The notes: generated by a model not told the origin, from the sequence alone. Numbered from the stretch's first letter, positions 2,559-45,478 are shown. The stretch is DNA of 47,378 nucleotides from an uncultured Syntrophaceae bacterium (GCA_964393245.1 CAYMTD010000001.1:1-47378), one strand, 5' to 3'. Numbers and translations are program-made.

Positions 2559-3020
2559 TTGGTAACGGTCTATGTTAAGTTGACGGGAAGTTTTCTCCCA
2601 TATGGTTCTCCAGAACAGCCGGGGCCCATTGAAATTACCCTCAAGAATGGAGCCACGATCCAGGAGGCCATTCAAGCGTTGGGGATACCCAAGGAAAGAG
2701 TCAAGCTGATCTTTGTTAATCACAGGGGGGCCTTTTTGGATCAGCTGCTCAAAGATGGAGACAGGGTTTCCCTTTTTCCGGCAGAATATCCGGTTTTCGC
2801 TGATTGGAAGGGATCTATTCTTAGGAAAGCACATGACGATGAGATGATCGAGGAGGGGAGAATGAAAAAGTGGAAGTGCTCAATTTGCGACTATATCTAT
2901 GACCCATCAAAGGGAGATCCTGATAACGGAGTGAAACCTGGAACGGCCTTTGAGGCAATTCCAGATGACTGGGTTTGCCCCACTTGCGGTGCCGGAAAGG
3001 ATATGTTTGAACCCCAGTAG
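2559..3020 (+). CDS. beta-grasp domain protein reading in frame into a complete rubredoxin (fusion or read-through)
   Basis: TTG start. Residues 1-80 are a paralogue of 2253..2546. The C-terminal 52 aa, [15 protein letters not shown]...[18 protein letters not shown], is a canonical rubredoxin (CxxC...CPxCG). An internal SD GAGGAGGGG (2850-2858) plus in-frame ATG at 2862 could give a free 52-aa rubredoxin. Confidence 0.7.
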
Positions 3021-18585: not shown

Positions 18586-18605
18586 AAGAAAAGGGGGTGA
18601 AATGT

Positions 18606-19718: not shown

Positions 19719-19808
19719 GCATAAAATCCCCCTTTCTCCCCCCCTTTGCCAAAGGGGGGGGTGGGGGGGTTAGGATGTCAATTTTAAAAATAGAAAGGAG
19801 GAATGTTT

Positions 19809-20957
19809 ATGGCATTAGAGTGGATGCCGAGGGAACATGAAATTAAATTTCACGATCGTCATAGCAAAGAGCATTGGGGGACAGAGGCGCCGTGTGTGGT
19901 CTATGAGAAAAAGCCTTTGAAGGATCCAAAGGGCAATGTCATTCAGGGCCTCTATAATGTCTGGATCAGACTCAATAACCCTGCTCAGTACAACTCCTAT
20001 ACGACGGAGATGGTGAAGGGTGTTATCGCTGGTATGGAGAATGCGTCCACGGATCGCTCGATTGTGGCCGTTGTATTTACCGGCACTGGCCCTTACGCTT
20101 TCTGTACGGGCGGAAATACCAAAGAGTATTCAGAGTATTACAGTATGCGGCCGGAGGAGTATGGGGCTTACATGGAGCTTTTCAATAACATGGTTGATGC
20201 CATCCTCATGTGTAAGAAACCTGTGATCTGCCGCGTCAATGGGATGAGGGTGGCTGGAGGACAGGAAATCGGGACGGCCTGTGACCTCTCGATTGCCTCA
20301 GACCTTGCGATTTTTGGACAGGCTGGTCCCCGCCATGGGTCAGCCCCTGTGGGCGGTGCCTCTGACTTCCTTCCCTGGTACCTGAGCATCGAAGATGCGA
20401 TGTGGAGCTGCATCAGCTGTGAGATGTGGTCTGCCTACAAAATGTGGCGAAAGGGACTCATCACAAGGTGCGTTCCTGTTCTCAAGGATGATAAGGGCAA
20501 ATGGGTACGCAACCCACAGATTATTACAGATGATTACGTGAAGGACGGTGAGTTGGTATACGGTGAGTTCAAGACAGGCGACGAATTCAAGCAGGCACGA
20601 GAGTGGGTGAACAATAAACTTAAGAATAATGAGTTCGATTTCTCCCTGCTTGACGCCGAAGTGGAGAAGATCTGCTGGACCTTTGCAAATCTCTTCCCCG
20701 GCTGTCTGATGATGTCCATCGACGGCATCCGAAATAAGAAGAAGTTTTTCTGGGATCAAATGAAGAACCCGAACAGACACTGGCTCGCAGCAAATATGAT
20801 GGGAGAAGCCTTCCTTGGGTTCGGTGCCTTCAATACGAAGAAGATCACGGGTGTGGATACGATCGACTTCATCAAGTATCGCCAGAATATTGCCGAAGGC
20901 AAACTCGTGGATGAGAAATTCTTTGAGGAAGTGCTGGGAAAACCTCAGAAGAAGTAA
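19809..20957 (+). CDS. bamA: 6-oxocyclohex-1-ene-1-carbonyl-CoA hydrolase (ring-opening enzyme Oah/BamA)
   Basis: LEWMPREHE N-terminus, QYNSYTT, FCTGGNTKEYSEYY, VNGMRVAGGQEIG, FGQAGPRHGSAPVGGASDFLP. These are blocks I recall from Oah/BamA. About 380 aa, crotonase-like. Confidence 0.88.
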   Translation: MALEWMPREHEIKFHDRHSKEHWGTEAPCVVYEKKPLKDPKGNVIQGLYNVWIRLNNPAQYNSYTTEMVKGVIAGMENASTDRSIVAVVFTGTGPYAFCTGGNTKEYSEYYSMRPEEYGAYMELFNNMVDAILMCKKPVICRVNGMRVAGGQEIGTACDLSIASDLAIFGQAGPRHGSAPVGGASDFLPWYLSIEDAMWSCISCEMWSAYKMWRKGLITRCVPVLKDDKGKWVRNPQIITDDYVKDGELVYGEFKTGDEFKQAREWVNNKLKNNEFDFSLLDAEVEKICWTFANLFPGCLMMSIDGIRNKKKFFWDQMKNPNRHWLAANMMGEAFLGFGAFNTKKITGVDTIDFIKYRQNIAEGKLVDEKFFEEVLGKPQKK

Positions 20958-21076
20958 GGATTTTGATTGAATGATTCAAAAAACATTACACCCTTTGGGC
21001 TTGATAATATTTCCTTGCCCAAAGGGTGTTTTTTCCCTGAACCATGTGGGGTCCAGGGCGACGGGAGGTGAGACCA

Positions 21077-21844
21077 ATGGCATACAAACATATTCAGACA
21101 GAACTTAAAGAAGGCGTGGCTGCCCTGACCTTGAACCGGGCTCCACTCAATGTACTGAATATCGAGATGATGGAGGAGATCAATGATTATCTCGAGGGGT
21201 TGAAGAAAGAGAAATCACTGAAGCTCCTGGTCATCCAGGCGGCTGGGAAAGCCTTCTCCGCAGGTGTCGATGTCGGAGAACATCTCGGTGATCTGGTCTA
21301 TAAGATGATTGAGGTCTTCCACAAAATGTTTCGATTGATGGACGCCCTGGAGGTCCCCTCCATTGCTGTCGTAAACGGTTCTGCCTTGGGAGGAGGATGC
21401 GAACTGGCTCTCTACTGCGATATGGTGATTGCGACTGACAAATCGAAATTTGGACAACCCGAAATACAGGTCGGAGTCTTCCCTCCGATCGCCGCCCTGA
21501 TCTTCCCGAGAATGATCGGACGGAAGAAGGCCATGGAGTTGATTCTTTCAGGAGATATCATCAGTGCCCAGGAAGCCCTCTCCATGGGTTTGATCAACAA
21601 GGTGGTTCCGGAGGCTTCCCTTGCCGATGAGGTCAATGGATTTATTGGAAAGTTTAAGAAATTAAGTAGGATCGTTTTGAAATTGGCGAAAGAGGCGACG
21701 CTCGCAGGTCTCAATGATGATGTGGATAAAGGCCTTAAGACGATTGAAAAAATCTACTTGGATCGGCTCATGAAGACGGGCGATGCTATGGAAGGCCTCA
21801 AGGCCTTTTTGGAGAAGCGAAAACCCAACTGGAAAGATATTTGA
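21077..21844 (+). CDS. dch: enoyl-CoA hydratase (crotonase); likely cyclohexa-1,5-diene-1-carbonyl-CoA hydratase (Dch/BamR)
   Basis: 255 aa crotonase fold (FSAGVDV, NGSALGGGCELAL, FGQPEIQVG). Gene context had-oah-dch. SD GGGAGGTGA before the ATG. Confidence 0.65.
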   Translation: MAYKHIQTELKEGVAALTLNRAPLNVLNIEMMEEINDYLEGLKKEKSLKLLVIQAAGKAFSAGVDVGEHLGDLVYKMIEVFHKMFRLMDALEVPSIAVVNGSALGGGCELALYCDMVIATDKSKFGQPEIQVGVFPPIAALIFPRMIGRKKAMELILSGDIISAQEALSMGLINKVVPEASLADEVNGFIGKFKKLSRIVLKLAKEATLAGLNDDVDKGLKTIEKIYLDRLMKTGDAMEGLKAFLEKRKPNWKDI

Positions 21845-25493: not shown

Positions 25494-25559
25494 CCTTTTA
25501 CAATCTTGGTATTAATTTAGCCCTTTGAAAAATGATAAAAGGGCTGGCAAATAAAGCTT

Positions 25560-25630
25560 GTCATTCCTGCGGAAGCAGGAATCCAGATTTTAGTCTCCAG
25601 GTCCTGGATTCCCGTTTTCACGGGAATGAC
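25560..25630. repeat. hairpin repeat sharing the core of the 135-bp MITE, opposite orientation
   Basis: GTCATTCCTGCGGAAGCAGGAATCCAG...CTGGATTCCCGTTTTCACGGGAATGAC is the reverse complement of the core at 32622-32698, with a different loop and without the TGATG/CATCA termini. Confidence 0.7.
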
Positions 25631-29448: not shown

Positions 29449-29464
29449 GTTCACTATTGTGAAC
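29449..29464. promoter_or_regulatory. operator-like palindrome S1 (GTTCAC TATT GTGAAC)
   Basis: Perfect 6-N4-6 inverted repeat. About 45 nt upstream of the -35 of the AOR2 promoter. Confidence 0.55.
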
Positions 29465-29566: not shown

Positions 29567-29582
29567 GTTCAGTATTGTGAAC
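29567..29582. promoter_or_regulatory. operator-like palindrome S2 (GTTCAG TATT GTGAAC)
   Basis: One mismatch relative to S1. About 30 nt downstream of the putative -10, in the leader. Confidence 0.55.
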
Positions 29583-29652: not shown

Positions 29653-29934
29653 ATGGGAAACGAGAAACAAGGCCTTTCAACAGCTGAATCCCTGCGTAAG
29701 ACTCGTACCTATGGCCAGGTGAGGTGCCATAATCCCAGTTGTATGGGAAGAATTACGCCAGAGCCCGGGGCAAAGCAAGTGAAATGTCCCCGTTGTGGTA
29801 TGGAATGGCGTATCGCCTGGGTCAAAGACGGTTTTCCCCGGATCAGAGGTCCCGTATGGGATGTGGACACAAGATTAGCACAAGAGGCATTTGAAAGAAA
29901 AATGAAGGAGGAAAGGAAAGATGGCCCTAAATAG
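29653..29934 (+). CDS. Zn-ribbon miniprotein (93 aa), unknown family
   Basis: SD AAGGGGG then ATG. Cys pairs CHNPSC and CPRC. Basic C-terminus. Its stop overlaps the AOR2 start by 14 nt (translational coupling). Confidence 0.55.
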   Translation: MGNEKQGLSTAESLRKTRTYGQVRCHNPSCMGRITPEPGAKQVKCPRCGMEWRIAWVKDGFPRIRGPVWDVDTRLAQEAFERKMKEERKDGPK

Positions 29935-31861
29935 GAAGATAGCGTACATTGATCTCACCACCGGCAAGATTGAAATCAAGCCTATTCCGATCGAAATCCG
30001 GAAAAAATTCCTGGGAGGCAGGGGGCTGGATGCCTACCTGCTTTACAATCATACGAAAAAAGCGTGTGACCCCCTTGGGCCTGACAATACCTTGATGGTG
30101 AGCGGTGGAATTTTAACTGCCACTTTGGCCTCGGCAACCTCCAGATGCCACGTGATGGCCAAATCTCCGTTGGGAGGGATGTTAGGAAGCTCTAACATGG
30201 GAGGTTTCTTTACTCCTGAGTTAGCCTGGGCAGGGTTTCATCATCTTGTCATCAAGGGCAAGGCGCAAAAACCTGTCTACCTGTGGATCCACAATGGGAA
30301 GATTGAGATCCGCGATGCAAAAAACATTTGGGGAAAAACGGTCACAGACACCCAATGGGCGATCCGAGAGGAGCTAGGGGATGAGGATATCAAGAGTTTG
30401 GTGATCGGTCCGGCGGGGGAAAATCTGGTAAGGTATGCGAATGTGATGACCGGAATCAAGAATTCTGGTGGAAGGACCGGGATGGGAGCAGTCATGGGCT
30501 CAAAAAATTTGAAGGCCGTTGCTGCCCGTGGCACCATGGATATAAAGATCGCCTATCCAAAAGAAGCACTCGAATACAACAAACGCTTTATTGATCAAAT
30601 TACAAGCGCGAAGGTCAACCAGACCCAGGGGGCCCTCGGAACCCCATTCATTTGGGGAGCGACCAACTCCTGGGGCGGGGTTCGAACCAGAAACTTCCAG
30701 TATAACCAGCAGCTCTATTGCGATGAAATCGAGCCGGAATCGATTGATGATAACGCTACAGAAACGATTGGGCCCTACCATATGACGGGTTGCTTCGGTT
30801 GCCAGGTCCACTGCCGGGCTAAGTATAAGATTCCGACCGGACCTTACGCAGGAAAGTATGATGAGGGTCCGGAGTATACTTCCCAGGGTGCTTTTTGCTC
30901 TGAACCAGATATCCCCAGCCTCGAAACCCTATTGACGGCGAATCACTTGGTCGATCAATGGGGGGTGGACAACCTCGAAATCGGAAGCCTCATCTCTTGG
31001 GCGATGGAGCTCTATGAGCTGGGAATTCTCACGAACAAGGAGACCGATGGCTTAGAATTGCGGTTTGGCAGTAGTGAGGCACTGCTGGAGATGATCGAAC
31101 GGATCTGCTTTAGAAAGGGCTGGTTGGGTGATACCTTGGCCGAGGGAGGGATTATTGCCTCTGAGAGAATTGGGAAAGATTCTTTTGACTACCTGATTCA
31201 GGTCAAAGGAGTGAGCAATCTTCACTCTGATGAGCGCGCAACCCCTGCCCTTGCTCTTAATATTGCTACCGCTTCGCGCGGCTCAGACCACTTAAGAAGT
31301 CGACCCGCAATTGATCTATACCATCTGCCCGTGGATGTGCTGAGGAAGATTTACAGTAGCCCGGTTCCCTATGACGGCCCGCTGAGTTCGGAGCATACGG
31401 AATACATCGGCAAGCCATGGCAGGTCTTTTGGCAAGAAAATTGTTATATGGGGGTGGATTGTCTTGGGATCTGTAAGTATCACACGACCTTCCTGGGTGC
31501 AACGCTTCCCAACTTTGAAGACTGGTCTAAAGTGCTTTATTACAATACCGGGCTGGAGCTTACCCCCCGGGAAATCTGGGAGGTTGCTGAGCGGTGCAAT
31601 ATGATGGAGCGGCTCTTCAACCTCCGTGAAGGTTTGAAACGGGAAGATCTTTACAGGGGTGATATGCTCAATCACCGATACTTTGATGAGCCCACCCGAA
31701 GAGGTGCGCCCGACGTTGTCGGCAGGGTGATCGATCGGGAAAAATTCAGGAAGATGGTCGACGAATTCTACGAATATAAGGGCCTTGACCAGAACGGCGT
31801 TCCGAAGCCAGAGACGCTCAAGAGGCTTGGCCTGGATAAGGAACCCTCCCACCTGCTGTAA
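29921..31861 (+). CDS. AOR-family tungstopterin enzyme, long form (AOR2; BamB/WOR5/AorB-like size class)
   Basis: 646 aa. AOR N-domain (FLGGRGLDAYL, KSPLGG), CFGCQVHC cluster motif, GPEY, SRGSDH, distal Cys in DCLGICKY. SD AGGAGG. No Tat signal. Confidence 0.88.
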   Translation: MALNRKIAYIDLTTGKIEIKPIPIEIRKKFLGGRGLDAYLLYNHTKKACDPLGPDNTLMVSGGILTATLASATSRCHVMAKSPLGGMLGSSNMGGFFTPELAWAGFHHLVIKGKAQKPVYLWIHNGKIEIRDAKNIWGKTVTDTQWAIREELGDEDIKSLVIGPAGENLVRYANVMTGIKNSGGRTGMGAVMGSKNLKAVAARGTMDIKIAYPKEALEYNKRFIDQITSAKVNQTQGALGTPFIWGATNSWGGVRTRNFQYNQQLYCDEIEPESIDDNATETIGPYHMTGCFGCQVHCRAKYKIPTGPYAGKYDEGPEYTSQGAFCSEPDIPSLETLLTANHLVDQWGVDNLEIGSLISWAMELYELGILTNKETDGLELRFGSSEALLEMIERICFRKGWLGDTLAEGGIIASERIGKDSFDYLIQVKGVSNLHSDERATPALALNIATASRGSDHLRSRPAIDLYHLPVDVLRKIYSSPVPYDGPLSSEHTEYIGKPWQVFWQENCYMGVDCLGICKYHTTFLGATLPNFEDWSKVLYYNTGLELTPREIWEVAERCNMMERLFNLREGLKREDLYRGDMLNHRYFDEPTRRGAPDVVGRVIDREKFRKMVDEFYEYKGLDQNGVPKPETLKRLGLDKEPSHLL

Positions 31862-31937: not shown

Positions 31938-32447
31938 ATGGAACCGATGGGTAAAGTTCTTGCGATCAGTCCTGAAAAGTGCACCGGCTGCAGGCTCTGT
32001 GAGCTCGTCTGTTCGGTTTTCCATGATGGCGTATCCAATCCTGCTCGAAGCCGGATAAAAGTTATGAAATGGGAGTCAGAAGGGATCTATGTTCCGATGT
32101 CCTGTCAGCAGTGTCAGGATGCCCCCTGTATGATCGTTTGTCCTGTGAAGGCAATTACCCGCGACGAGTCACTCAGCCGGGTGGTGGTCAATCATGATAT
32201 CTGCATTGGCTGCCGTTCCTGTGTGGCGGTTTGCCCCTTTGGAGCAATGAATTTCAGCGTTATGGATCGAAAGAATTTTAAGTGCGATCTCTGTGACGGA
32301 GATCCGCAGTGCGTTCGTTTCTGTGAAGTTAAAGCAGTGGATTATGTGGATGCGGACCGGGTAAGTATTGCCAAGAAGAGGGCAGCGGCTGAAAAGATCA
32401 CTGCCGCTCAAAGGCAGGCGATCGCCTTAGAGTCAGAATCACGCTAA
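31938..32447 (+). CDS. four-cluster [4Fe-4S] ferredoxin subunit (BamC/AorA/DmsB-like, FCP-1)
   Basis: 169 aa with four Cys motifs: CTGCRLCELVC, CQQCQDAPCMIVCP, CIGCRSCVAVCP, CDLCDGDPQCVRFC. No signal peptide. Confidence 0.85.
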   Translation: MEPMGKVLAISPEKCTGCRLCELVCSVFHDGVSNPARSRIKVMKWESEGIYVPMSCQQCQDAPCMIVCPVKAITRDESLSRVVVNHDICIGCRSCVAVCPFGAMNFSVMDRKNFKCDLCDGDPQCVRFCEVKAVDYVDADRVSIAKKRAAAEKITAAQRQAIALESESR

Positions 32448-32533
32448 GGTGAATTAGTTTCGTCTGCGAATAGAAAGGTTTTGTAGGCGCAACCTTTAGG
32501 TTGCGTAATATCCAATGGTCTGCGATTTGTACA

Positions 32534-32562
32534 GGGGCTGGTTTGATGCCAGCCCCTTTTCT
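32534..32562 (+). terminator. intrinsic terminator of the AOR2 operon
   Basis: GGGGCTGG (32534-32541) / CCAGCCCC (32549-32556) followed by TTTTCTT. Confidence 0.65.
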
Positions 32563-32601: not shown

Positions 32602-32736
32602 TGATGAAGTCGTAAAAAGTCGTCATTCCCGTGAAAACGGGAATCCAGGGAATTCTAACTACATGAAAATACTGGATTCCTGCTTCCGCAGGAATGACAA
32701 AAAATCCCTTTTCAGACTTTTTACGAAACCATCATT
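32602..32736. mobile_element. 135-bp MITE-like element, copy A
   Basis: Identical base for base to 45344-45478 by direct reading. Imperfect terminal inverted repeats TGATGAAGTCGTAAAAAGTC / GACTTTTTACGAAACCATCA. Internal hairpin GTCATTCCCGTGAAAACGGGAATCCAG ... CTGGATTCCTGCTTCCGCAGGAATGAC. Confidence 0.75.
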
Positions 32737-32847
32737 TTTTTAAAATCATTTGTAGCCGCAGGACTTCGGCGTGAGCTCAGTCGAACGCTTTAGCCTGCGT
32801 ATAAGACGCAACCTAAAGGTTGCGGCTACAGAGGTTCATGTGTCGTC

Positions 32848-33120
32848 TTATCCTCCTGCAAGCATCACAAGAAGGTTGATTTCGTCCCCATCCTTGACGG
32901 GTTTGGTGAGTTCATTGGGGTAGGCGGTTACATTATTTACAAAAATCTCAACGACATTGAGCAGTTTGTCCTTCTTGGCAAACAACGCCTTCTCCATCCC
33001 AGGGTACTGTTTGACCAATTGGTTCAGACACTCCCCAACCGTATTTCCCTCTACGATGACCATATCCTGGCCGTTGGTAAATCGGCGGTGTGTGATGTGA
33101 ATATGTACCTTGACAGGCAT
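32848..33120 (-). CDS. MoaD-family beta-grasp sulfur-carrier-like protein with C-terminal GG
   Basis: 90 aa ending ...KDGDEINLLVMLAGG*, a canonical MoaD/SAMP-type tail. Confidence 0.75.
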   Translation of the reverse strand: MPVKVHIHITHRRFTNGQDMVIVEGNTVGECLNQLVKQYPGMEKALFAKKDKLLNVVEIFVNNVTAYPNELTKPVKDGDEINLLVMLAGG

Positions 33121-33139
33121 GTCTTATTTTTTTCCATGG

Positions 33140-33167
33140 GTAGGGAACGCATATATGCGTTCCCTAC
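33140..33167. promoter_or_regulatory. perfect 28-bp palindrome between FCP-2 and the MoaD-like gene
   Basis: GTAGGGAACGCATA|TATGCGTTCCCTAC, 14-bp perfect arms with no loop. Confidence 0.5.
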
Positions 33168-33182
33168 AGAGGATTCCACTCG

Positions 33183-33668
33183 CTACCTCAACTGTTTTAT
33201 CGATTCGATAAATCTGTTGGCGGCTTCTCGCTTCTTGGTCACCTCAATCCTATCGGCATCGACATAAGTGACTGCCTTCGGTTCACAGAAGGCGACGCAC
33301 TTAGGATCCCCATCACAAAAGTCGCACTTCACCGTCACCCGATCCTGAACGTCAAAGAATGGGTGACCAAAAGGACAGGCGACGACACAAGTCCTGCACC
33401 CGATGCATAGATTTTTGTCGATCACTACCCGGTTATTGTTTTCGGGTTCCCGATGACAGGCCTTGGTCGGACAGACCTCAACGCAGTAGGCCTTTTCACA
33501 GTGATTGCAGATCATAGGAAGGTAGATCCCCACATGCTCCCATTTCACCACCCTGATACGGGACCGGCTCGGATTGCTTGCGCCAGTGTGCTGCACGGAA
33601 CAGACCAGCTCACAGAGGCGGCATCCGGTGCACTTTTGCTGATCGACCACTAATACCTTTTGCTCCAT
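33183..33668 (-). CDS. four-cluster [4Fe-4S] ferredoxin (FCP-2), paralogue of 31938..32447
   Basis: 161 aa. CTGCRLCELVC, CNHCEKAYCVEVCP, CIGCRTCVVACP, CDFCDGDPKCVAFC. Collinear with FCP-1 along its whole length. No signal peptide. Confidence 0.85.
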   Translation of the reverse strand: MEQKVLVVDQQKCTGCRLCELVCSVQHTGASNPSRSRIRVVKWEHVGIYLPMICNHCEKAYCVEVCPTKACHREPENNNRVVIDKNLCIGCRTCVVACPFGHPFFDVQDRVTVKCDFCDGDPKCVAFCEPKAVTYVDADRIEVTKKREAANRFIESIKQLR

Positions 33669-33724
33669 TTTAAGCCCCTTTTCCTATAAGGGTTGCGCGA
33701 GAGCGTGAGCCACAAGTGCAATCA

Positions 33725-33855
33725 AAATTCCAAGTTCCAAGCACCAAACTCCAAATAAATTCCAAGCACCAAATTAGAAAAGAAGAAAGTTTTGGTCGTT
33801 TGATGTTGGAATTTGGAGCTTATTTGGAAATTGGGATTTGGTGATTGGTGCTTCA
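33725..33855. repeat. low-complexity CCAAA/TTTGG giant hairpin, same family as 9406-9600
   Basis: ATTCCAAGTTCCAAGCACCAAACTCCAAATAAATTCCAAGCACCAAATT ... TTGGAATTTGGAGCTTATTTGGAAATTGGGATTTGGTGATTGGTGCTT. Confidence 0.65.
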
Positions 33856-33876
33856 TATCCTAATAAACCTTGATCT

Positions 33877-34878
33877 TTACGAATTATGATTTGGATTCTT
33901 AACCAAATCATACTGGATTTCCATCAACCGAATCATCGGAATCCGATCCTTGATACCCGCTTGGAGGACTCCCAGGCGGAGAAAAAAGCCCCCGCAAAGA
34001 AGGAGGACCCCGGCGGTGAAGATCAACGTTATACTTCCGGGGGAGAACGAGGCAATGGCCTCAAGAATCAAAGGAAAGATGAAGCCAAGGAGAACGATTC
34101 CTCCCCAAAAGATCAGTTTCATATCTCCAAACAGAAGAAGACGAACCGAATCCTTTCCCTGTTCGGCGGCTTTATACCTCTGAAAAAGGAAGAAATAAAG
34201 CACCATTCCTTCGAGTACGACGAGAATCTGTTCCCCGCGCATCAAGAATTTAAGCGCCTCACCCTGACTCGAGAGAAGGCCAGTTCCAAGGGTGGAAAGG
34301 ATGATGGCCATGGATCCGGTTGACAGTGCTGAAACCAGAAAGAGCAGCGGAAGAAGATTGGTATTCCATAAGGGGATCGATTTGGTCGCCTTCAAAAGAA
34401 TGCCTGTGTACAGGGCGGTGGCAAATGCAAAGGCGAGGGTGACGACCTCGGGGACAATCCAGAAGGGAGACTCAGCATGGAGCCATTTGAAAGGGAAAGC
34501 AGATTTTGCCAAAAGAACCACTCCCAATACAATGAAAATGGCGAGGATAAGAAAGCCCCGAGCCACCCAAGAGGTTCTTGGGTTCAGACAGGCATATAAG
34601 AATCTCCTCTTGATACCTAGATCTAAAATGAGGAAAGGAGCACCGATGGCGACCAGAAGGGGCCCCCACAAAATAGCGGCTTTTGCAGAGTCGAAGGGCA
34701 ACCCCCAAATCGATAGACCCCTGGTAGGCTGAACAAACCAGTTGAGGAGGGTACCAATCACATAAGCGCCGGCTCCCATTCCCGCAAGATAGAGATAAAT
34801 AGCCGGAATTTCCTTCCATTCTTGTTGAGGCCTGAGACACCTCACGTTTCTTATGGGATAAATAGACTCTTTCCCCAT
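33877..34878 (-). CDS. NrfD/PsrC/DmsC-family polytopic membrane protein (quinone-interacting anchor type)
   Basis: About 333 aa from the ATG at 34878 (MGKESIYP...). WKEIPAIYLYLAGMGAGAY, LDLG.KRRF, SW.ARG, and 8 or more hydrophobic helices are typical of NrfD-like anchors. The longer ORF-track start at 34977 would cover operator S3. Confidence 0.75.
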   Translation of the reverse strand: MGKESIYPIRNVRCLRPQQEWKEIPAIYLYLAGMGAGAYVIGTLLNWFVQPTRGLSIWGLPFDSAKAAILWGPLLVAIGAPFLILDLGIKRRFLYACLNPRTSWVARGFLILAIFIVLGVVLLAKSAFPFKWLHAESPFWIVPEVVTLAFAFATALYTGILLKATKSIPLWNTNLLPLLFLVSALSTGSMAIILSTLGTGLLSSQGEALKFLMRGEQILVVLEGMVLYFFLFQRYKAAEQGKDSVRLLLFGDMKLIFWGGIVLLGFIFPLILEAIASFSPGSITLIFTAGVLLLCGGFFLRLGVLQAGIKDRIPMIRLMEIQYDLVKNPNHNS

Positions 34879-34992: not shown

Positions 34993-35020
34993 ATCATAGC
35001 ATATCTTTTTATCCTGTCAA
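34993..35020 (-). promoter_or_regulatory. candidate promoter of the nrfD-like gene
   Basis: On the minus strand: TTGACA (35020-35015), 16-nt spacer, TATGAT (34998-34993). Confidence 0.4.
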
Positions 35021-35239: not shown

Positions 35240-35255
35240 GTTCATTATGGTGAAC
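35240..35255. promoter_or_regulatory. operator-like palindrome S4 (GTTCAT TATG GTGAAC)
   Basis: Ends 3 nt before the IclR ATG. Same architecture as S1-S3. Confidence 0.55.
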
Positions 35256-35257
35256 GA

Positions 35258-36028
35258 ATGAAAAAGACGGGTTATTTTGCTCCCTCTGTTCAAAAGGCAT
35301 TCAAGATTCTCCAGACGATTGCGGATTCCCCCTCGGGTTTGGGGGTGAGTGAGCTGGCAAAGAAATTGGGCATGGGAAAAAGCACCGTTCATGGGATTAC
35401 AATGGGGCTTGAGGGCTTGGGAGTCCTCGTTAGAGATCCCGTAGATAAGAGGTTCAATCTTGGATACAGCTTGTTAGAACTGGGCCGAAGAACTTATGTG
35501 AGGATTGAACTCCGGGATGTCGCCAGGGTGCCGATGGAACGATTGATGGAAAGGGTAGGGGAGACGGTCTTCCTGGGGATTCTCAATGGAGACCATGTAA
35601 CCATTTTAGAGGTGGTGGAATCTCATCGTGAGATGAAGATTACCTCACCCCCTGGGACAAAACTCCCGCTGCTCGCCGGAGCAACAGGGAAGGTCTTTCT
35701 TTCTCTGGTTGATGAGAAAAAGGCTAAAGAGATTGTTCTGAAATTAGGCTTGGTCAAATTCACTCCCAAGTCCCTCGTCGATCAAAAAAAGTTTCTCAGA
35801 GAAGTGGAGGAGACGAGAAAAAGAGGCTATGCCATTGACGATGAGGAGTATATGCTCGGGGTCAGAGCGGTTGCAGCCCCCATTCACACGGCTTCCCCTC
35901 CTGTGGCTGCAATTTGGGCGGTGGGATTTACTTCAAGTCTCAACGACCAAAAAATGGACCGAGCGATTTCGGAGATTAAGAAAACCGCTGAGGAAATTAG
36001 CCAGTCGATGAAGAAACACGTTAGCTGA
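35258..36028 (+). CDS. IclR-family transcriptional regulator
   Basis: SVQKAFKILQTIADSPSGLGVSELAKKLGMGKSTVHGI is the IclR wHTH, followed by a C-terminal effector domain. The longer ORF-track start is unlikely because it would cover the promoter and operator. Confidence 0.85.
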   Translation: MKKTGYFAPSVQKAFKILQTIADSPSGLGVSELAKKLGMGKSTVHGITMGLEGLGVLVRDPVDKRFNLGYSLLELGRRTYVRIELRDVARVPMERLMERVGETVFLGILNGDHVTILEVVESHREMKITSPPGTKLPLLAGATGKVFLSLVDEKKAKEIVLKLGLVKFTPKSLVDQKKFLREVEETRKRGYAIDDEEYMLGVRAVAAPIHTASPPVAAIWAVGFTSSLNDQKMDRAISEIKKTAEEISQSMKKHVS

Positions 36029-38122: not shown

Positions 38123-38833
38123 TTAAAAAGCCCCCTCCTTGGCCAGCGCAAGAAAGTGGGCGACATCAATCTGCTTCGGACAGACATGGGAACAGGCCTT
38201 CGAGGTGTGGCAACGGTAGATTCCCTCCTCGCTGTAGAGGAGATTGAGCCGTTCATCCTTTTCCTCTTCCCTCGGATCCATCATCCGGACGATGCTGGCC
38301 ATCGCTGCATTGGGGCCGATGAAGCTCTTGTTCCCGCTGATGCAGGCCTCGGCGCAGCAAAAGCAGTTGATACAACGCGTTGCCTCTTCATAACGGGTAA
38401 GCTCCTGGGGAGAGATTCGATGCTCCGTCATACCGGGGGGAAGCTCTTTCGGCTTGATGAGGTAGGGCTTTGCCCTGTGGACACGTTCATAGGCCCTCTC
38501 CCAGTCCACGACGAGATCCCGGATGACCGGAGCAACGGACACTGGCGTGATCTTGAATTTGGTCGTACCAAACAGGTTGACGGCGTTCTCCACAAGCAGC
38601 TCACAGGCCAGCATGGGCCTCCCGTTGACATTCACCGAGCAACTGCCGCACTGCGCGTGCTCGCAGGACGATGCCCAGGCCAGGGTGGCGTCCTGTTCCA
38701 CATTGATTCTGCGGAAGAGATCGACGAAACGCAGGATCGGGCCACAGTCAAGCTTGTAGGTCTGAAACCAGGCAGCAGATCTATCTGGATCGTAACGCTT
38801 GATCGTCAATGTCAGGGAGTAGGTTTTGGACAC
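38123..38833 (-). CDS. sdhB: succinate dehydrogenase / fumarate reductase iron-sulfur subunit
   Basis: 236 aa. 2Fe-2S CGSCSVNVNG...AC, 4Fe-4S CINCFCCAEAC, and CHTSKACSHVCP. Confidence 0.85.
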   Translation of the reverse strand: MSKTYSLTLTIKRYDPDRSAAWFQTYKLDCGPILRFVDLFRRINVEQDATLAWASSCEHAQCGSCSVNVNGRPMLACELLVENAVNLFGTTKFKITPVSVAPVIRDLVVDWERAYERVHRAKPYLIKPKELPPGMTEHRISPQELTRYEEATRCINCFCCAEACISGNKSFIGPNAAMASIVRMMDPREEEKDERLNLLYSEEGIYRCHTSKACSHVCPKQIDVAHFLALAKEGAF

Positions 38834-38866
38834 GGTTTCCTCCTCTTGAGGGCAACGATGGAAGGT

Positions 38867-40663
38867 TCAATATTTTCTCGGGATAACCCTGAAGTGTTCG
38901 TAAAGCTCCCCTTTGGATTCATAGATGCTCATGTCGATCGGGCGTTTCCCGAAGCTGACCTCGCCGAATTCCGTCATGGAGACAAGCGTATGGAACTGAA
39001 ACTCGTCACTTCGTTCGGGATAATCCTCCCGAAAATGCGCCCCCCGCGATTCCTTTCTCATCAGAGCGCCCTGGGTGATGGTTATCGCGTTGTCGAGGAG
39101 GTTGTCCAGCTCCCACCGCTCCAACAGCTCCTGATTCATTTTCATACTCTTCGTGGAGATGGCGGCCTTGGCTGCCCGCTGTTTCAACGCGATCAGGGAG
39201 GTGATGGCCTCCTGCATTCCCCTTTCGATCCGAAAGACGCCCACTTTGCTGGTCATCAGCTCCCGCATCTCCTGACGGATCTGGCCGACGCTTTCATTTC
39301 CTTGGGTCTCGAGATAACTTGCAAACAGGGCAAGCGTGGCCTCTCCCGCCCCCTTCGGCGACGGCACCTGCTTTTCCGCGAGGTAGGAAAGGATCCGTTC
39401 TCCTGCGATGCGGCCCATCACCAGCAGCTCCAGCAAGGAATTGGTGCCGAGGCGATTGAATCCATGGAGACTCGCGCAGGCGCACTCGCCGAGAGCGAAA
39501 AGCCCAGGAACGACCCTGTTTGCGGCATCTTGCACCTCCCCATGCTCATTGGTCGGGATGCCTCCCATATGGTAGTGGTTACTCGGTCGCACGGGGCAGA
39601 GCTGCGTGCGCGCGTCCAGATTGGCATAAGTCTTGAAGAAACTTGCCACCTCCTTCAATTTGACCTCGTGGACATAGTCGGGCAGGTGGCGAAGATCGAT
39701 CCAGACATGCTCGGTCTGATGGTCGGGGTTCATGATCCCCCTCCCCTCCCGGATCTCTGTCTCGATCGCTCTGGCAACAATATCCCGAGGAGCAAGATCT
39801 TTCATCTTGGGGGCATATCGCTCCATGAATGGTTCCAATTCTTTGTTGCGCAAGATTCCACCCTCGCTTCGCAGGGCCTCGCTGGCCAGGATGCCGGGTC
39901 CGACGATCCCAGTAGGATGGAACTGGACGGCCTCCGGATCCATCACAGGCAAACCGGCCCTCAGAATCACCGCCAGCCCGTCTCCCGTATTGTTACGGCA
40001 GTTTGTCGTAATCCGAAACACCTGGCCGGAGCCGCCGGTGGCCAGGACTGTTGCCTTGGCCAAGACGGTAAAGAACTCCCCTTCTTTGATCTTGAACAGG
40101 ACCGCGCCCACGCAGCACCCCTCGTTGAAAAGAAGTTCTGTGACGACTGTCGAATTAATAAAAACAGAACCCCCTTTGAGCGCCTCTCCCCAGACTGTAT
40201 CCATCATTCCCTTGCCCGTACGATCGGCTACGAATACGGCCCGTAAGGCGTCTCCTTTGCCGAACTCAAGGGTGTGGCCACCAAACTGCCGCTTGGCGAT
40301 GTTCCCCTCCTCATCGCGGCTAAAGTGTATCCCCTTGCGCTCTAACCATTGGACCTCCTCCCACCCGCCCTCGATGATCTTCTTGACGACGTTCTGGTCC
40401 GAACTGCAGTCGCCCCCCTTCCACGTGTCGAACATATGGTAGATTGCCCGGTCCGCCTGATCCCTCGGGTCGACGGCGGCCATCCCACCCTGGGCGGTGC
40501 TGGTGTGGGATTTTTGGGGATGAGCCACCTTGGTCACCGCAAAGATTGAGAGATCGGGTCTCCGTTCGTGGAGAAACGCCGCACATCGGAGACCCGCCCC
40601 TCCCGCCCCGATAATCAGAACATCGCACGTTAACGTGGAATGGATCTGCAGCTTTTCCCCCAT
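38867..40663 (-). CDS. sdhA: succinate dehydrogenase / fumarate reductase flavoprotein subunit
   Basis: DVLIIGAGGAGLR dinucleotide fold, SHTSTAQGG (covalent-FAD His context), HYHMGG, RGAHFRED. ATG 40663 is preferred over the TTG at 40690. Confidence 0.88.
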   Translation of the reverse strand: MGEKLQIHSTLTCDVLIIGAGGAGLRCAAFLHERRPDLSIFAVTKVAHPQKSHTSTAQGGMAAVDPRDQADRAIYHMFDTWKGGDCSSDQNVVKKIIEGGWEEVQWLERKGIHFSRDEEGNIAKRQFGGHTLEFGKGDALRAVFVADRTGKGMMDTVWGEALKGGSVFINSTVVTELLFNEGCCVGAVLFKIKEGEFFTVLAKATVLATGGSGQVFRITTNCRNNTGDGLAVILRAGLPVMDPEAVQFHPTGIVGPGILASEALRSEGGILRNKELEPFMERYAPKMKDLAPRDIVARAIETEIREGRGIMNPDHQTEHVWIDLRHLPDYVHEVKLKEVASFFKTYANLDARTQLCPVRPSNHYHMGGIPTNEHGEVQDAANRVVPGLFALGECACASLHGFNRLGTNSLLELLVMGRIAGERILSYLAEKQVPSPKGAGEATLALFASYLETQGNESVGQIRQEMRELMTSKVGVFRIERGMQEAITSLIALKQRAAKAAISTKSMKMNQELLERWELDNLLDNAITITQGALMRKESRGAHFREDYPERSDEFQFHTLVSMTEFGEVSFGKRPIDMSIYESKGELYEHFRVIPRKY

Positions 40664-40690
40664 GGCGATTCCCCTTGTGGGACTCCCCAA

Positions 40691-41515
40691 TCAAATTGGC
40701 AAGATGATTCTGACGGCAAAAACGAAAAGAACGACAATGACGGCAATGACGATCGCCGTCATTCCGGTCAGCACCTTCTTCGAAAAGATGTAGTCGGCTG
40801 CGATCGAGAAGAGACCATACCCTGCATGGTAAAGCATCAATATTGTTACAATCAGAATGGCCATCCGTGTAAAGCCGTTCTGGATCCATACGATCGCGCC
40901 ATGAGCCGTCTCGGTTTGGCTCGGATTGAGGTACAAAAAGAGAAGGTAGGCGGGGACGGTCGTGAACAGGAAGCCGCCGCTGATCCTCTGTAGCTTCCAA
41001 AGAAGCGAATGGGGGTTTATCCATATACGGGAGGCGATGGCATAAGCGGCAATCGCACCGGAAAAAAACGCCATCAGCCAAAAAAAGAAGGTGGATGCGT
41101 GCTGGTTTTTCATCATCATCAGCCCGATCATTGCGGCATACCCAGCGGTGAGACCGAAGATCCAACGAATCATGTCCGCATCGTTACGTCTTCCGAATAA
41201 TTCATACAGAATGAGGCGACCCCCGTTCAGGGCATGAAACCCTACAACCAGAGATGAGACCAAGGCGAGGAAGACAAAGATCGGCTGACCCGGAATTTTC
41301 ATGTCGACATTGAAGACGTTGGGAGTTTGCCATGACGAGAGGGCAACCATATGGACCATGAAGGCGACGAAGAGCCAGATCCCCGTGAACCTGTGCAGCC
41401 AACTGATCACGTAAAACCAGCCGCGGGTCTTTGCATAACGGGAAAGAACAGGCAACTTATCGAGGATCGGGAACAAAGAAGCGCCGATCCCTTGACCCTC
41501 TTTCGGAACCTTCAT
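40691..41515 (-). CDS. sdhC: Sdh/Frd membrane anchor, apparently fused SdhC- and SdhD-like halves
   Basis: 274 aa with about 6-7 hydrophobic helices. LHRFTGIWLF and FHALNGGR are SdhC-like; LYHAGYGLFSIAADY in the second half is SdhD-like. Confidence 0.55.
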   Translation of the reverse strand: MKVPKEGQGIGASLFPILDKLPVLSRYAKTRGWFYVISWLHRFTGIWLFVAFMVHMVALSSWQTPNVFNVDMKIPGQPIFVFLALVSSLVVGFHALNGGRLILYELFGRRNDADMIRWIFGLTAGYAAMIGLMMMKNQHASTFFFWLMAFFSGAIAAYAIASRIWINPHSLLWKLQRISGGFLFTTVPAYLLFLYLNPSQTETAHGAIVWIQNGFTRMAILIVTILMLYHAGYGLFSIAADYIFSKKVLTGMTAIVIAVIVVLFVFAVRIILPI

Positions 41516-45343: not shown

Positions 45344-45478
45344 TGATGAAGTCGTAAAAAGTCGTCATTCCCGTGAAAACGGGAATCCAGGGAATTCTAA
45401 CTACATGAAAATACTGGATTCCTGCTTCCGCAGGAATGACAAAAAATCCCTTTTCAGACTTTTTACGAAACCATCATT
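45344..45478. mobile_element. 135-bp MITE-like element, copy B
   Basis: Identical to 32602-32736, same orientation. Confidence 0.75.

Follow-up and report, generated by a model that had tools for sequence, protein, structure and literature searches.

The window analyzed here, a 47,378-nucleotide stretch of DNA from an uncultured Syntrophaceae bacterium, carries on its two strands genes for an AOR-family enzyme, two polyferredoxins, a MoaD/ThiS-type protein, and an NrfD-like membrane protein (Table 1). A first-pass annotation, made from the sequence alone, had placed NrfD-like, four-cluster ferredoxin, and MoaD-GG genes at 32848-34878, and all three were found where it had put them.

Table 1. 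Genes and sequence features of the locus, with positions in the window
Feature	Position	Strand	Description
Operator-like palindrome GTTCACTATTGTGAAC	29449-29464		Distal copy, 5' of the small-AOR2 operon
Operator-like palindrome GTTCAGTATTGTGAAC	29567-29582		Proximal copy, 5' of the small-AOR2 operon
Small Zn-ribbon-like protein	29653-29934	+	CxxC...CxxC; FPRIRGPVW motif
AOR2	29921-31861	+	AOR-family catalytic subunit; Pfam AFOR_N and AFOR_C
FCP-1	31938-32447	+	169 aa; AorA-type 4x[4Fe-4S] polyferredoxin adjoining AOR2
Terminator-like GC-rich hairpin, then T run	32533-32557	+	Ends the AOR2-FCP-1 operon
MoaD/ThiS-type gene	32848-33120	-	90 aa; C terminus ...MLAGG
Perfect 28-bp palindrome	33140-33167		Between FCP-2 and moaD; single copy in the window
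FCP-2	33183-33668	-	161 aa; four Cys motifs, 16 Cys; AorA-type 4x[4Fe-4S] polyferredoxin
Repeat-rich spacer with imperfect hairpin	33669-33876	-	208 nt; splits nrfD from FCP-2
NrfD-like gene	33877-34878	-	333 aa counted from ATG; 8-helix membrane protein
Sigma-70-like promoter	34993-35020	-	TTGACA-16-TATGAT with TG extension; 5' of nrfD
Operator-like palindrome GTTCATTATGGTGAAC	35240-35255		Third copy, nrfD-iclR divergent region, just 5' of the iclR ATG
IclR-family regulator	35258-36028	+	Conserved divergent neighbor of nrfD

A profile search assigned the MoaD/ThiS-type protein to Pfam ThiS (34.4 bits; cut-off, 22.5), with moaD_arch and SAMP1 scores under their cut-offs, and this beta-grasp match together with the C-terminal Gly-Gly meets the criteria for the sulfur-carrier family. 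MoaD-like genes, AorD and AorE among them, are a hallmark of aor operons (PMC6365974), and by analogy the protein is likely to be a tungsten cofactor maturation factor. The small Zn-ribbon-like protein matched no family in profile searches; the 3' end of its ORF overlaps the AOR2 start by 14 nt, and such a gene lies 5' of the AOR gene in both Thermodesulfobacteriota and Chloroflexota-type loci.

The first-pass annotation had also reported that no bisPGD gene is present here, which held within the scope of our searches: no molybdopterin-family match was obtained among 37 window ORFs scanned with Pfam (mostly the larger ones, with the succinate-dehydrogenase-like ORFs at 38123-41515 left out), and tblastn of the 47-kb window with a related bisPGD protein was also empty. 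The presence of a bisPGD catalytic subunit in the same operon, a criterion of complex iron-sulfur molybdoenzymes, is unmet in the window. The ORFs scanned with Pfam contained no HdrA- or NuoF-type families, and no gene for an FAD/NAD-binding subunit (AorC) was found in the cluster, either in the window or in the related loci examined. Elsewhere in the window, had and oah genes scoring above curated NCBIfam cut-offs lie 9 to 11 kb upstream, and a group of ORFs reads, from translations only, as a succinate dehydrogenase/fumarate reductase operon.

Conserved linkage across genomes

In a survey of 48 species-level genomes or loci, FCP-2 lay immediately downstream of nrfD in all 44 loci with room for it. 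An AOR2 ortholog was present in 27 of the 48; where flanks were full (8 kb or more on each side), it was found within 10 kb in 15 of 18 loci. No AOR was found in the available sequence of L038, L040, and L044, which have full flanks, or of L003 and L057. The linkage between AOR and NrfD survives several rearrangements of gene order, being collinear, convergent, or divergent. In Chloroflexota, the genes form a single same-strand cluster in the order small-AOR-FCP1-MoaD-NrfD-FCP2. Individual same-strand clusters read AOR-FCP1-NrfD-FCP2, with gaps of 23, 185, and 38 nt (L042), or small-AOR-FCP1-ThiS(1-2)-NrfD-FCP2 (L055, L060, and L062), and NrfD-FCP directly follows AOR in L061 and L063, with gaps of 21 and 7 nt, respectively. 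Collinear versions also exist in Syntrophaceae (L001 and L002).

The window has the two halves pointing toward each other across 400 nt of repeats. This layout is a rearranged version of a gene set that is conserved in at least two bacterial phyla. The "orphan" label given to the nrfD half in the first-pass annotation therefore failed, whereas its core idea, that NrfD and FCP-2 serve an AOR enzyme and not a bisPGD enzyme, is supported: in the co-occurrence check it had called for, NrfD/FCP pairs neighbor AOR2 orthologs in most genomes, so that the idea is not refuted, although complex formation and quinone use are still inferred.

The gene set is also present in Dehalococcoidales. It adjoins had/oah genes in two phyla and ATPase-less BzdN/O-like genes in one locus.

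Ferredoxins, active site, and anchor

FCP-1 and FCP-2 are 59% identical across 156 aa, with a single one-residue gap, and have KCTGCRLCELVCSV in common, which bears out the earlier claim of collinear paralogs sharing an identical block. FCP-1 scored 151 bits against AorA (8c0z_C) and 148 bits against 9mqx_E, and FCP-2 scored 136 bits against 9mqx_E and 131 bits against AorA; scores of the FCPs against PsrB were far lower, at 38 to 43.5 bits (43.5 bits for FCP-2 against 2vpw_B). By family assignment, both proteins are AorA-type AOR "nanowire" subunits and are not PsrB-like. Electron wiring from AorA to AorA is established (PMC10413684). FCP-1 retains all 16 Cys for four clusters and, as an AorA-type polyferredoxin beside the catalytic gene, meets the AorABC-type criterion; across phyla, the AOR-adjacent and NrfD-adjacent FCP paralogs stay distinct. 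N-terminal alignments gave no signal peptide in AOR2, FCP-1, or FCP-2, so that the earlier statement that all three lack Tat and Sec signals held. Their residues 1 to 4 align to residues 1 to 2 of cytoplasmic AOR subunits, the exception being AorA (8c0z_C), in which the match begins at residue 35 to 37. With the first Cys of each FCP already at residue 13 to 15, neither of these two proteins could accommodate a Tat or Sec signal.

The closest solved structure to AOR2 is 1aor (306 bits, versus 204 bits for BamB). Residues C291, C294, and C298 and the Cys of a GICKY motif align with the [4Fe-4S] ligands of Pf AOR, and AOR2 meets the AOR sensu stricto criterion of AFOR_N, AFOR_C, and four cluster Cys. 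Of the AOR second-shell residues Thr243, Glu313, Tyr427, and His448 (PMC12096430), the Thr and the His are kept, Glu313 is replaced by Thr320, and Tyr427 is replaced by Ser. Both replacements are present in most aligned members of the NrfD-linked clade, the exception being the NrfD-adjacent AOR of L061, which retains the Glu and lacks the His; the Glu and the Tyr are retained in five solved AORs, the window's AOR1, and L060_615. In the Glu313 column, AOR2 T320 aligns to C336 of YdhV. This residue is equivalent to the metal ligand Cys322 of BamB (PMC12096430), an equivalence taken from that study, as BamB was not itself in our ligand alignment. With Thr at this position, AOR2 fails the criterion of a BamB/YdhV Cys metal ligand, and its C326 is not conserved in the clade. 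We rejected AOR2 both as a BamB ortholog, given the lower BamB score and the missing Cys ligand, and as a member of the ordinary aldehyde oxidoreductases, given the loss of Glu313 and Tyr427. Since Thr stands where aldehyde oxidoreductases have Glu313 and BamB and YdhV have Cys, the substrate of AOR2 is unknown, and the two replacements leave the earlier suggestion of aldehyde or acid oxidation uncertain.

The NrfD-like protein matched Pfam NrfD (PF03916) with 104.4 bits (cut-off, 25.8) over profile positions 11 to 309 of 313. Its score with NCBIfam cyt_nit_nrfD, 79 bits, is under the equivalog cut-off, and the protein is therefore not an NrfD ortholog. It has eight hydrophobic segments and, in an AlphaFold2 model, eight long helices; confidence in this model is low (pLDDT, 59.5), and it was used only for this helix count and for a weak match to ActC, chains of which, from alternative complex III, were the best Foldseek matches (E, 3e-4 to 7e-4; TM, ~0.5). 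Sequence searches against solved structures with the protein or a 25-member profile yielded nothing usable. The protein aligns collinearly with E. coli NrfD across TM1 to TM8.

Lys and Arg residues on the N-terminal side versus the opposite side number 19 to 20 versus 3 to 5 in the window protein, 11 to 26 versus 0 to 4 across the family, and 5 versus 13 in E. coli NrfD, and the inverted bias was found in 79 of 124 full-length representatives. By the positive-inside rule, we predict an inverted anchor whose two ends are cytoplasmic (N-in/C-in), a topology that is inferred. In PsrC, the termini and the FCP lie on the P-side (PMC8076601), and by prediction only, the canonical NrfD/PsrC criterion of P-side termini and FCP with Tat-exported partners is not met. 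The predicted inversion would fit the signal-less partners, as the FCP-docking and quinone side would face the cytoplasm, and it resolves the earlier worry over an unusual topology. The quinone-site check that the first-pass annotation had proposed showed that Y28, S103, Y157, T158, and R301 are conserved, corresponding to Y21, S92, Y162, T163, and R306 of E. coli NrfD; S103 is the Ser strictly conserved in quinone-reactive NrfD members. D86 occupies the His/Asp position of this site, with Lys instead in the Chloroflexota clade, and conservation does not extend to the counterpart of D15.

Palindromes and repeats

On reading the AOR2 upstream region, a shared palindrome, GTTCA-N6-TGAAC, emerged, which has exactly three copies in the window, two 5' of the AOR2 operon and one in the nrfD-iclR intergenic region. 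The proximal copy lies 62 nt upstream of a TTG (29629) and 86 nt upstream of the ATG (29653) of the small ORF. The motif has 97 matches in 732 kb of related loci, compared with 0 to 3 in shuffles; 41 of the 97 precede small-AOR2, and 39 fall between iclR and nrfD. Counted by locus, it was found 5' of small-AOR2 in 21 of 23 related loci, and of the 41 loci in which iclR and nrfD diverge, 39 have it between the two genes. In about 40 genomes, the palindrome is a shared motif that marks both the promoter region of AOR2 and the stretch between iclR and nrfD. Its operator role is inferred, and the IclR-family regulator is a possible binder. The nrfD-side copy, at the iclR start, is about 220 nt from the nrfD promoter-like site and may serve iclR autoregulation only. 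Among 11-mers shared by intergenic regions, none linked the AOR2 and nrfD units. An "operator S3" said in the first-pass annotation to link the two units could not be identified by name; GTTCA-N6-TGAAC is what the two regions have in common.

A 20-nt core of the 28-bp palindrome recurs in L023, where an FCP gene flanks it on one side and an AOR paralog on the other. The large repeat hairpin reported earlier between the nrfD-like gene and FCP-2 is present as imperfect inverted repeats of 27 nt (78%) and 18 nt (89%) with a 24-nt direct repeat; the fold predicted for this RNA stands out only moderately (z = -1.9), and the spacer yielded no terminator-like call. At orthologous junctions, the two genes overlap or lie up to about 340 nt apart, with tight spacing in several loci, and the spacer has no counterpart in related loci past short matches. 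We rejected it as a conserved regulatory RNA and treat it as a lineage-specific local insertion.

A proposed AOR-family:menaquinone oxidoreductase and its rivals

We lean, by a modest margin, toward the view that the small Zn-ribbon protein, AOR2, FCP-1, the MoaD-GG protein, FCP-2, and NrfD form one conserved gene set for a cytoplasm-facing AOR-family:menaquinone oxidoreductase. What the data show is the gene content and its conserved linkage, the motif in common, the family assignments, and the conservation of residues; we infer the complex itself, its topology, its use of quinone, and which way electrons flow, with no experiment or complex model behind them. In this scenario, AOR2, with a W-bis-metallopterin and one [4Fe-4S] cluster, would oxidize a still unknown substrate, and electrons would pass from the four clusters of FCP-1 to the four of FCP-2, AorA-type subunits being known to stack as a wire, to arrive at a menaquinone site on the cytoplasmic face of the inverted NrfD-type anchor. 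The MoaD-like protein would aid tungsten cofactor synthesis, the IclR-type regulator would govern the gene set via the shared palindromic operator, and the NrfD/FCP-2 module would replace the FAD/NAD subunit AorC of soluble AorABC enzymes. Against this proposal, passing electrons of about -0.5 V into menaquinone seems wasteful unless the anchor conserves energy, and some Dehalococcoidia are reported to lack quinones (PMC10772276). Also counting against it are the loci whose available sequence has no AOR, the convergent halves and the repeat hairpin of the window, the placement of the nrfD-side palindrome copy, the bisPGD gene near some loci, and the low confidence of the NrfD model.

An AOR enzyme with an NrfD-type anchor is undescribed in the literature that we searched, most subscription journals being outside the search. 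AorABC (Aromatoleum aromaticum; PDB 8c0z) and the two-subunit AOR 9mqx likewise join an AOR catalytic subunit to a 4x[4Fe-4S] AorA-type polyferredoxin, and AorABC also has MoaD-like maturation genes in its operon and AorA subunits that touch one another and conduct electrons. Unlike AorABC, the window set has no AorC but a second AorA paralog and an NrfD membrane protein at the exit position, an AOR2 without Glu313 and Tyr427, and an extra small Zn-ribbon gene 5' of AOR2. PsrABC, DmsABC, NrfABCD, and TtrABC share with it the NrfD-family 8-helix anchor, the adjoining four-cluster ferredoxin gene, and the quinone-site Ser, Tyr, and Tyr-Thr, but in the window the partner is AOR-family instead of bisPGD or multihaem, Tat signals are lacking, the anchor is predicted to be inverted, and the FCP is AorA-like and not PsrB-like. 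SoeABC, a sulfite:quinone oxidoreductase, is the sole described NrfD-type complex with proposed cytoplasm-facing subunits and an inverted anchor (PMC8076601); however, SoeA is a bisPGD enzyme, and the SoeC quinone-site residues as listed differ, without a direct sequence comparison. E. coli ydhYVWXUT, which combines genes for the AOR-family YdhV, two ferredoxin-like proteins, and a membrane protein, sets a precedent for linking an AOR-family system to the membrane, but its anchor YdhU is of the cytochrome b561 type (PF01292) and YdhV has the Cys ligand where AOR2 has Thr. The first ferredoxin domain of YdhX begins at about residue 45, after what we take to be a Tat signal, whereas the window FCPs have no N-terminal extension. 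Finally, class II benzoyl-CoA reductase BamBC (PDB 4z3w) resembles the window set in its AOR-family subunit with an FeS partner, its benzoyl-CoA pathway neighborhood, and its loss of canonical AOR second-shell residues; in contrast, AOR2 has no Cys ligand and scores only 204 bits, FCP-1 scores only 59 bits and keeps its 16 Cys, and no HdrA/NuoF-type family occurs in the scanned window ORFs.

The strongest rival, though itself unlikely, is that NrfD/FCP-2 is a general cytoplasmic iron-sulfur:menaquinone oxidoreductase for other donors of aromatic or alicyclic acid pathways (ferredoxin, acyl-CoA dehydrogenase/ETF-type), with AOR2 co-regulated but unbound. Three loci without a nearby AOR (L034, L038, and L040) retain MoaD-NrfD-FCP2 by acyl-CoA dehydrogenase and SDR genes, Fer4 and CCG (HdrD-like) proteins substitute for FCP-2 in L064, and BzdN/O-like genes follow FCP-2 in L061; from these contexts, the NrfD module appears exchangeable. 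However, FCP-2 is of the AOR polyferredoxin type, the MoaD gene travels with it, and L063 consists of AOR-NrfD-FCP only, joined by a 7-nt gap and an overlap, with no other obvious partner. Another reading, which we regard as unlikely, assigns NrfD/FCP-2 to a classical Mo/W enzyme of three subunits as its membrane module; the bisPGD subunit would be encoded elsewhere, and AOR proximity would reflect a shared pathway only. The candidate subunit is a cytoplasmic, signal-less acetylene-hydratase/PsrA-like protein near many related loci: a gene for a 685- to 686-aa bisPGD protein of the acetylene-hydratase-like kind occurs within 10 kb at 11 of the 48 loci. In L042, L055, and L062 it converges directly on FCP-2, and L060 has it close by on the other strand; its product, scoring 270 bits against PsrA (2vpw_A) and lacking a Tat signal, would suit an inverted anchor. 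Yet ORF scanning and tblastn of the 47-kb window gave no such gene, and it was not observed on the same strand directly beside nrfD-FCP-2, lying on the other strand or several genes off. Among solved proteins, its product comes nearest to the non-redox acetylene hydratase (340 bits), FCP-2 is AorA-like and not PsrB-like, and AOR linkage is commoner, including same-strand clusters with 7- to 21-nt gaps.

It is similarly doubtful that the NrfD-like protein uses no quinone and serves only as a membrane tether or as a channel for protons, in the manner of the NrfD-like subunit in the quinone-free organohalide-respiration complex of Dehalococcoides. Dehalococcoidales carry the gene set, Dehalococcoides strains without quinones use a large membrane-bound respiratory complex (PMC10772276), and D86 is replaced by Lys in the Chloroflexota clade; on the other hand, the strictly conserved Ser, the Tyr-Thr pair, and the TM1 Tyr are kept family-wide, and window ORFs read, from translations only, as a succinate dehydrogenase/fumarate reductase operon. 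Least credible is the speculative first-pass proposal that the anchor stands in for the BamDEFGHI module of class II benzoyl-CoA reductase, using pmf to push menaquinol electrons uphill to AOR2 as a ring-reducing enzyme. The had/oah genes 9 to 11 kb upstream in the window, and after the convergent bisPGD gene beside the cluster in L055, speak for it, as does the loss of the aldehyde-oxidizing Glu313 and Tyr427. It is not supported, as AOR2 has Thr and not Cys at the BamB/YdhV metal-ligand position (PMC12096430) and scores 204 bits against BamB versus 306 against AOR. Menaquinol lies at about -74 mV and benzoyl-CoA at about -620 mV, a step of about 0.55 V uphill, or roughly 100 kJ per two electrons; from these established redox values, we estimate that six or more protons would be required.

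All characterized AOR-family enzymes deliver electrons to soluble carriers (ferredoxin or NAD) or, as in class II benzoyl-CoA reductase, to a large soluble bifurcating module. If our proposal of an anchored, quinone-coupled AOR is true, very low-potential tungsten chemistry would be tied directly to the respiratory chain, which could conserve energy in syntrophs living near the thermodynamic limit. The NrfD anchor family would gain a catalytic partner that is neither bisPGD nor haem based, as well as a second, much larger case of an inverted anchor besides SoeC. The altered active site, the benzoyl-CoA pathway neighborhood, and the well-defined candidate operator offer experimental handles. 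A bolder reading is conceivable, in which these genes specify an energy-converting tungstoenzyme of the membrane that forms a class of its own. Its active site would be of a third type (Thr for Glu or Cys), a two-protein FeS chain would wire it to an inverted, possibly proton-translocating NrfD module, and it would catalyze an unknown redox step in anaerobic aromatic or alicyclic acid metabolism.

Gene content and conserved linkage

Our analysis confirmed the gene content proposed for 32848-34878 by the first-pass annotation: genes for a MoaD/ThiS-type sulfur-carrier protein, the polyferredoxin FCP-2 and an NrfD-family membrane protein are present, and no gene for a molybdopterin (bisPGD) catalytic subunit was found. 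On this set converge the plus-strand genes for a small Zn-ribbon-like protein, the AOR-family catalytic subunit AOR2 and the polyferredoxin FCP-1, a paralogue of FCP-2 (59% identity over 156 residues, with one 1-residue gap). Pfam scans covering 37 ORFs of the window, most of them among its larger ORFs, detected no bisPGD protein, and a tblastn search of the window with a related bisPGD protein as the query gave no match. The repeat hairpin reported between nrfD and the FCP-2 gene is real, though imperfect; its predicted folding is only moderately stronger than that of shuffled sequence (z = -1.9), and it was not found to contain a terminator-like site.

The label "orphan" given to the NrfD, FCP-2 and MoaD genes did not hold, as their linkage to AOR2 orthologues is conserved. 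Metagenomes contain hundreds of close relatives of the NrfD protein. When one genome was scanned for each species, 48 loci were obtained, mostly from Thermodesulfobacteriota MAGs (Syntrophaceae and Syntrophorhabdus) with two from Dehalococcoidales, and the window proteins were mapped onto them. An FCP-2 orthologue lies directly 3' of nrfD in 44 of the 44 loci with room for it, at distances from overlapping to about 340 nt. AOR2 orthologues are present in 27 of the 48 loci and in 15 of the 18 with at least 8 kb on either side; identity to the window counterpart is mostly 88-94% for these but only 47-73% for the NrfD orthologues. Many loci are collinear, in the order NrfD-FCP2-unknown protein-small-AOR2-FCP1, while others are convergent as in the window (MoaD to FCP-1 spacer of 0.1 to about 5 kb) and two have a divergent order. 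That the AOR2-NrfD linkage has outlasted repeated rearrangement argues for selection. Outside the Thermodesulfobacteriota, the gene set forms a single same-strand cluster (see the table; L-numbers denote related loci in other genomes). Exceptions to AOR linkage are L003, L038, L040, L044 and L057. The first-pass annotation would have counted its AOR-linked reading as refuted by NrfD/FCP pairs that always neighbored a bisPGD subunit and never AOR genes; the opposite is seen across related loci.

Two uncharacterized proteins accompany the set, neither matching any Pfam or NCBIfam family. In both phyla, the small Zn-ribbon-like gene is found directly 5' of the NrfD-linked AOR gene, overlapping it in several loci, and its product might be an extra subunit or assembly factor. 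The unknown 438- to 448-aa protein of the collinear loci is absent from the window; about 17 of the 48 loci, as well as L001, encode an orthologue. The spacer between the FCP-1 and moaD genes carries a 135-nt element that resembles a dispersed MITE/REP-like repeat, possibly at a rearrangement junction. A CetZ-type tubulin gene on two contigs with the complete same-strand cluster raises the possibility of an archaeal host and of interdomain transfer of the entire set.

Features of the window and of related loci
Feature	Location	Strand	Description
MoaD/ThiS-type gene	within 32848-34878	-	90 aa, C-terminal Gly-Gly
FCP-2 gene	within 32848-34878	-	ferredoxin, 161 aa, four Cys motifs
nrfD	ATG at 34878	-	333 aa; Pfam PF03916, 104 bits
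Promoter, sigma-70-like	5' of nrfD		TTGACA-16-TATGAT
Small ORF	29653-29934	+	3' end overlaps AOR2 start; conserved FPRIRGPVW motif, also in L055 4509-4766
AOR2 gene	29921-31861	+	AFOR_N and AFOR_C domains
FCP-1 gene	31938-32447	+
Terminator-like hairpin	end of AOR2-FCP-1 operon
135-nt element	32602-32736		100% identical to 45344-45478, 12.6 kb off; third copy at about 25558-25630 (about 84% identity)
Inverted repeats	32482-32511 / 32801-32830		flank the 135-nt element
Perfect 28-bp palindrome	33140-33167		between FCP-2 and moaD; role unknown
20-nt core of that palindrome, GGAACGCATATATGCGTTCC	L023 1870-1889		between FCP gene and AOR-paralogue gene
AOR1 gene	450-2180		second AOR, canonical (Glu313 and Tyr427 kept)
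ThiS/Mut7-C ubiquitin-like domain fused to rubredoxin	2559-3020		3' of AOR1
had and oah/bamA	18597-21844		crotonase gene 3'
Cluster	L042		AOR-FCP1-NrfD-FCP2; gaps 23, 185 and 38 nt
Cluster	L055, L060, L062		small-AOR-FCP1-ThiS(1-2)-NrfD-FCP2
Cluster	L059		same order as L055, genes frameshifted
Cluster	L061, L063		AOR then directly NrfD-FCP; gaps 21 and 7 nt
Cluster	L064		small-AOR-FCP1-NrfD
NrfD, then Fer4 and CCG-domain (HdrD-like) proteins	L064 7962-10002		in place of FCP-2
BzdN/BzdO-like proteins	L061 9743-12221		3' of FCP-2; no ATPase subunit gene directly after
bisPGD protein	L002 1729-3789; L042 3679-5736; L055 9470-11527		685-686 aa, no Tat signal
438- to 448-aa protein	L002 12073-13389		between FCP-2 and small-AOR2
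CetZ-type tubulin	L055 498-1670; L062 1-837		PF21011

Polyferredoxins, anchor topology and active site

Both FCPs match best the polyferredoxins of multisubunit AORs (AorA 8c0z_C and 9mqx_E, 131-151 bits), scoring only 38-43.5 bits against PsrB. In AorABC, AorA subunits form a wire for electrons, aligned via the FS3/FS4 clusters and the C-terminal helices and terminating in the FAD subunit AorC (PMC10413684). The aor operon also encodes two MoaD-like proteins with a presumed function in tungsten cofactor maturation (PMC6365974). The gene set described here comprises a catalytic subunit, two AorA-type paralogues and MoaD without AorC, and the NrfD protein occupies the expected place of the exit module. 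From the Thermodesulfobacteriota to the Chloroflexota, the AOR-adjacent and NrfD-adjacent FCPs remain distinct, which suggests that they have distinct docking roles.

None of AOR2, FCP-1 and FCP-2 carries an export signal, and the first-pass annotation had considered the resulting topology unusual. This concern is resolved if the anchor is inverted, as its charge bias predicts. The window NrfD protein is collinear with E. coli NrfD across all eight helices. Lys plus Arg counts in the loops of the N-terminal side versus the opposite side are 19-20 versus 3-5 in the window protein and 11-26 versus 0-4 in 23 family members, compared with 5 versus 13 in E. coli NrfD and 4 versus 7 in DmsC. In PsrC, the periplasmic side holds the two termini as well as the quinone site and FCP, and an inverted orientation has been proposed for SoeC only (PMC8076601). 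By the positive-inside rule, the termini, the FCP-docking face and the quinone-site residues of the window family are predicted to face the cytoplasm, which would remove the apparent conflict with the signal-less partners; confidence in a structure model of the protein was low. An exhaustive search gave 124 full-length representatives, of which 79 had an inverted, 30 a conventional and 15 an ambiguous bias, and the nearest relatives of the window protein were all inverted. These 79 (within P0225-P0373) would imply that inverted NrfD anchors form a large clade that has apparently not been described.

The best solved relatives of AOR2 are P. furiosus AOR (306 bits), 9mqx_D and AorB; BamB scores 204 bits over part of the length. 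Four second-shell residues are conserved in AORs, namely, Thr243, Glu313, Tyr427 and His448 (PMC12096430). AOR2 retains Thr243 and His448, while Glu313 is replaced by Thr320 and Tyr427 by Ser, changes present in most aligned NrfD-linked AORs of both phyla. The Glu and Tyr are retained in five solved AORs, in AOR1 and in the second AOR of L060. Cys336 of E. coli YdhV, a metal ligand in common with BamB, falls in the Thr320 column. We thus rejected assignment of AOR2 to the AOR type, for want of Glu at the Glu313 position, and to the BamB/YdhV type, for want of Cys at the ligand position. Being of neither type, AOR2 has a substrate that remains open.

Regulation and metabolic neighborhood

An operator was said to link the NrfD unit to AOR2; it probably corresponds to the palindrome TGTTCA[C/G]TATTGTGAAC, which we found at both units. 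Two copies lie 180 and 62 nt 5' of the TTG start of the small ORF, and a third, degenerate copy lies just 5' of the iclR ATG in the divergent nrfD-iclR region; the window contains no other GTTCA-N6-TGAAC sites. Across the 48 genome loci (732 kb), we counted 97 occurrences of the motif, versus 0-3 in shuffles, with 41 sites 5' of small-AOR2 (21/23 loci) and 39 in the iclR-nrfD region (39/41 loci); several of the remaining 17 are 5' of a paralogous FCP-AOR cluster. Together with the conserved divergent position of the IclR-type regulator gene next to nrfD, this distribution provides good evidence of a single regulon. The copy near nrfD, however, lies about 220 nt from the nrfD promoter-like site and may have iclR as its main target.

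The window is an aromatic/alicyclic acid island. Its had (TIGR03201, 483 bits) and oah/bamA (TIGR03200, 550 bits) genes exceed the curated cutoffs and, with the crotonase gene, represent the lower benzoyl-CoA pathway; an acyl-CoA ligase and glutaryl-CoA and cyclohexanecarboxyl-CoA dehydrogenase-like proteins are also encoded. In L055, the AOR-NrfD cluster adjoins a convergent bisPGD-ECH-oah-had block (oah, 479 bits; had, 463 bits; both above cutoff). By Pfam, an equivalent bisPGD-ECH-ECH-ADH arrangement is present in L060 and L062; L042 has at least convergent bisPGD and ECH genes, and L061 has BzdN/O-like genes. In both phyla, the bisPGD gene is repeatedly found near the cluster, often beside enoyl-CoA hydratase and had/oah genes, and its product most resembles acetylene hydratase (2e7z, 340 bits; PsrA, 270 bits).

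A putative AOR2-to-menaquinone chain

We modestly favor a cytoplasm-facing AOR2-FCP-1-FCP-2-NrfD chain that would transfer electrons to menaquinone from a substrate not yet identified, with MoaD acting in cofactor maturation and IclR regulating the gene set. The direction is inferred from potentials, because acid/aldehyde-type couples lie far below menaquinone. Energy conservation via NrfD-type subunits is thought to be possible.

The bisPGD enzyme could instead be the true partner of NrfD and FCP-2, but we regard this as unlikely. It is also improbable that NrfD and FCP-2 form a general FeS:quinone module merely coregulated with AOR2. We likewise doubt that the NrfD protein serves as a tether or channel independent of quinone, as in Dehalococcoides. 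Of the quinone-site residues of E. coli NrfD, Y21, Y162 and T163 correspond to Y28, Y157 and T158, the strictly conserved S92 to S103, and H74 to D86 (Lys in the Chloroflexota clade); the channel residue R306 corresponds to R301. Least probable is the suggested proton motive force-driven reverse flow to a ring-reducing enzyme, as the Cys ligand is missing and the span is about 0.55 V uphill.

The favored chain shares its catalytic and wire modules with AorABC, from which the exit module differs, and its anchor module with NrfD-anchored molybdoenzymes, from which the catalytic family and orientation differ; the predicted orientation is that proposed for SoeABC. In E. coli ydhYVWXUT, too, a membrane protein accompanies an AOR-family enzyme, but that anchor is of the cytochrome b561 type and the enzyme has a Cys ligand. 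An AOR partner is absent from the complexes in a 2021 review of NrfD-containing complexes, a 2025 tungsten-enzyme review mentions neither quinone nor NrfD, and we found no description of the AOR-NrfD arrangement in the literature searched, in which subscription journals were incompletely covered. The gene set would thus bring known modules together in a combination and a predicted orientation not described before, with a distinct type of active site.
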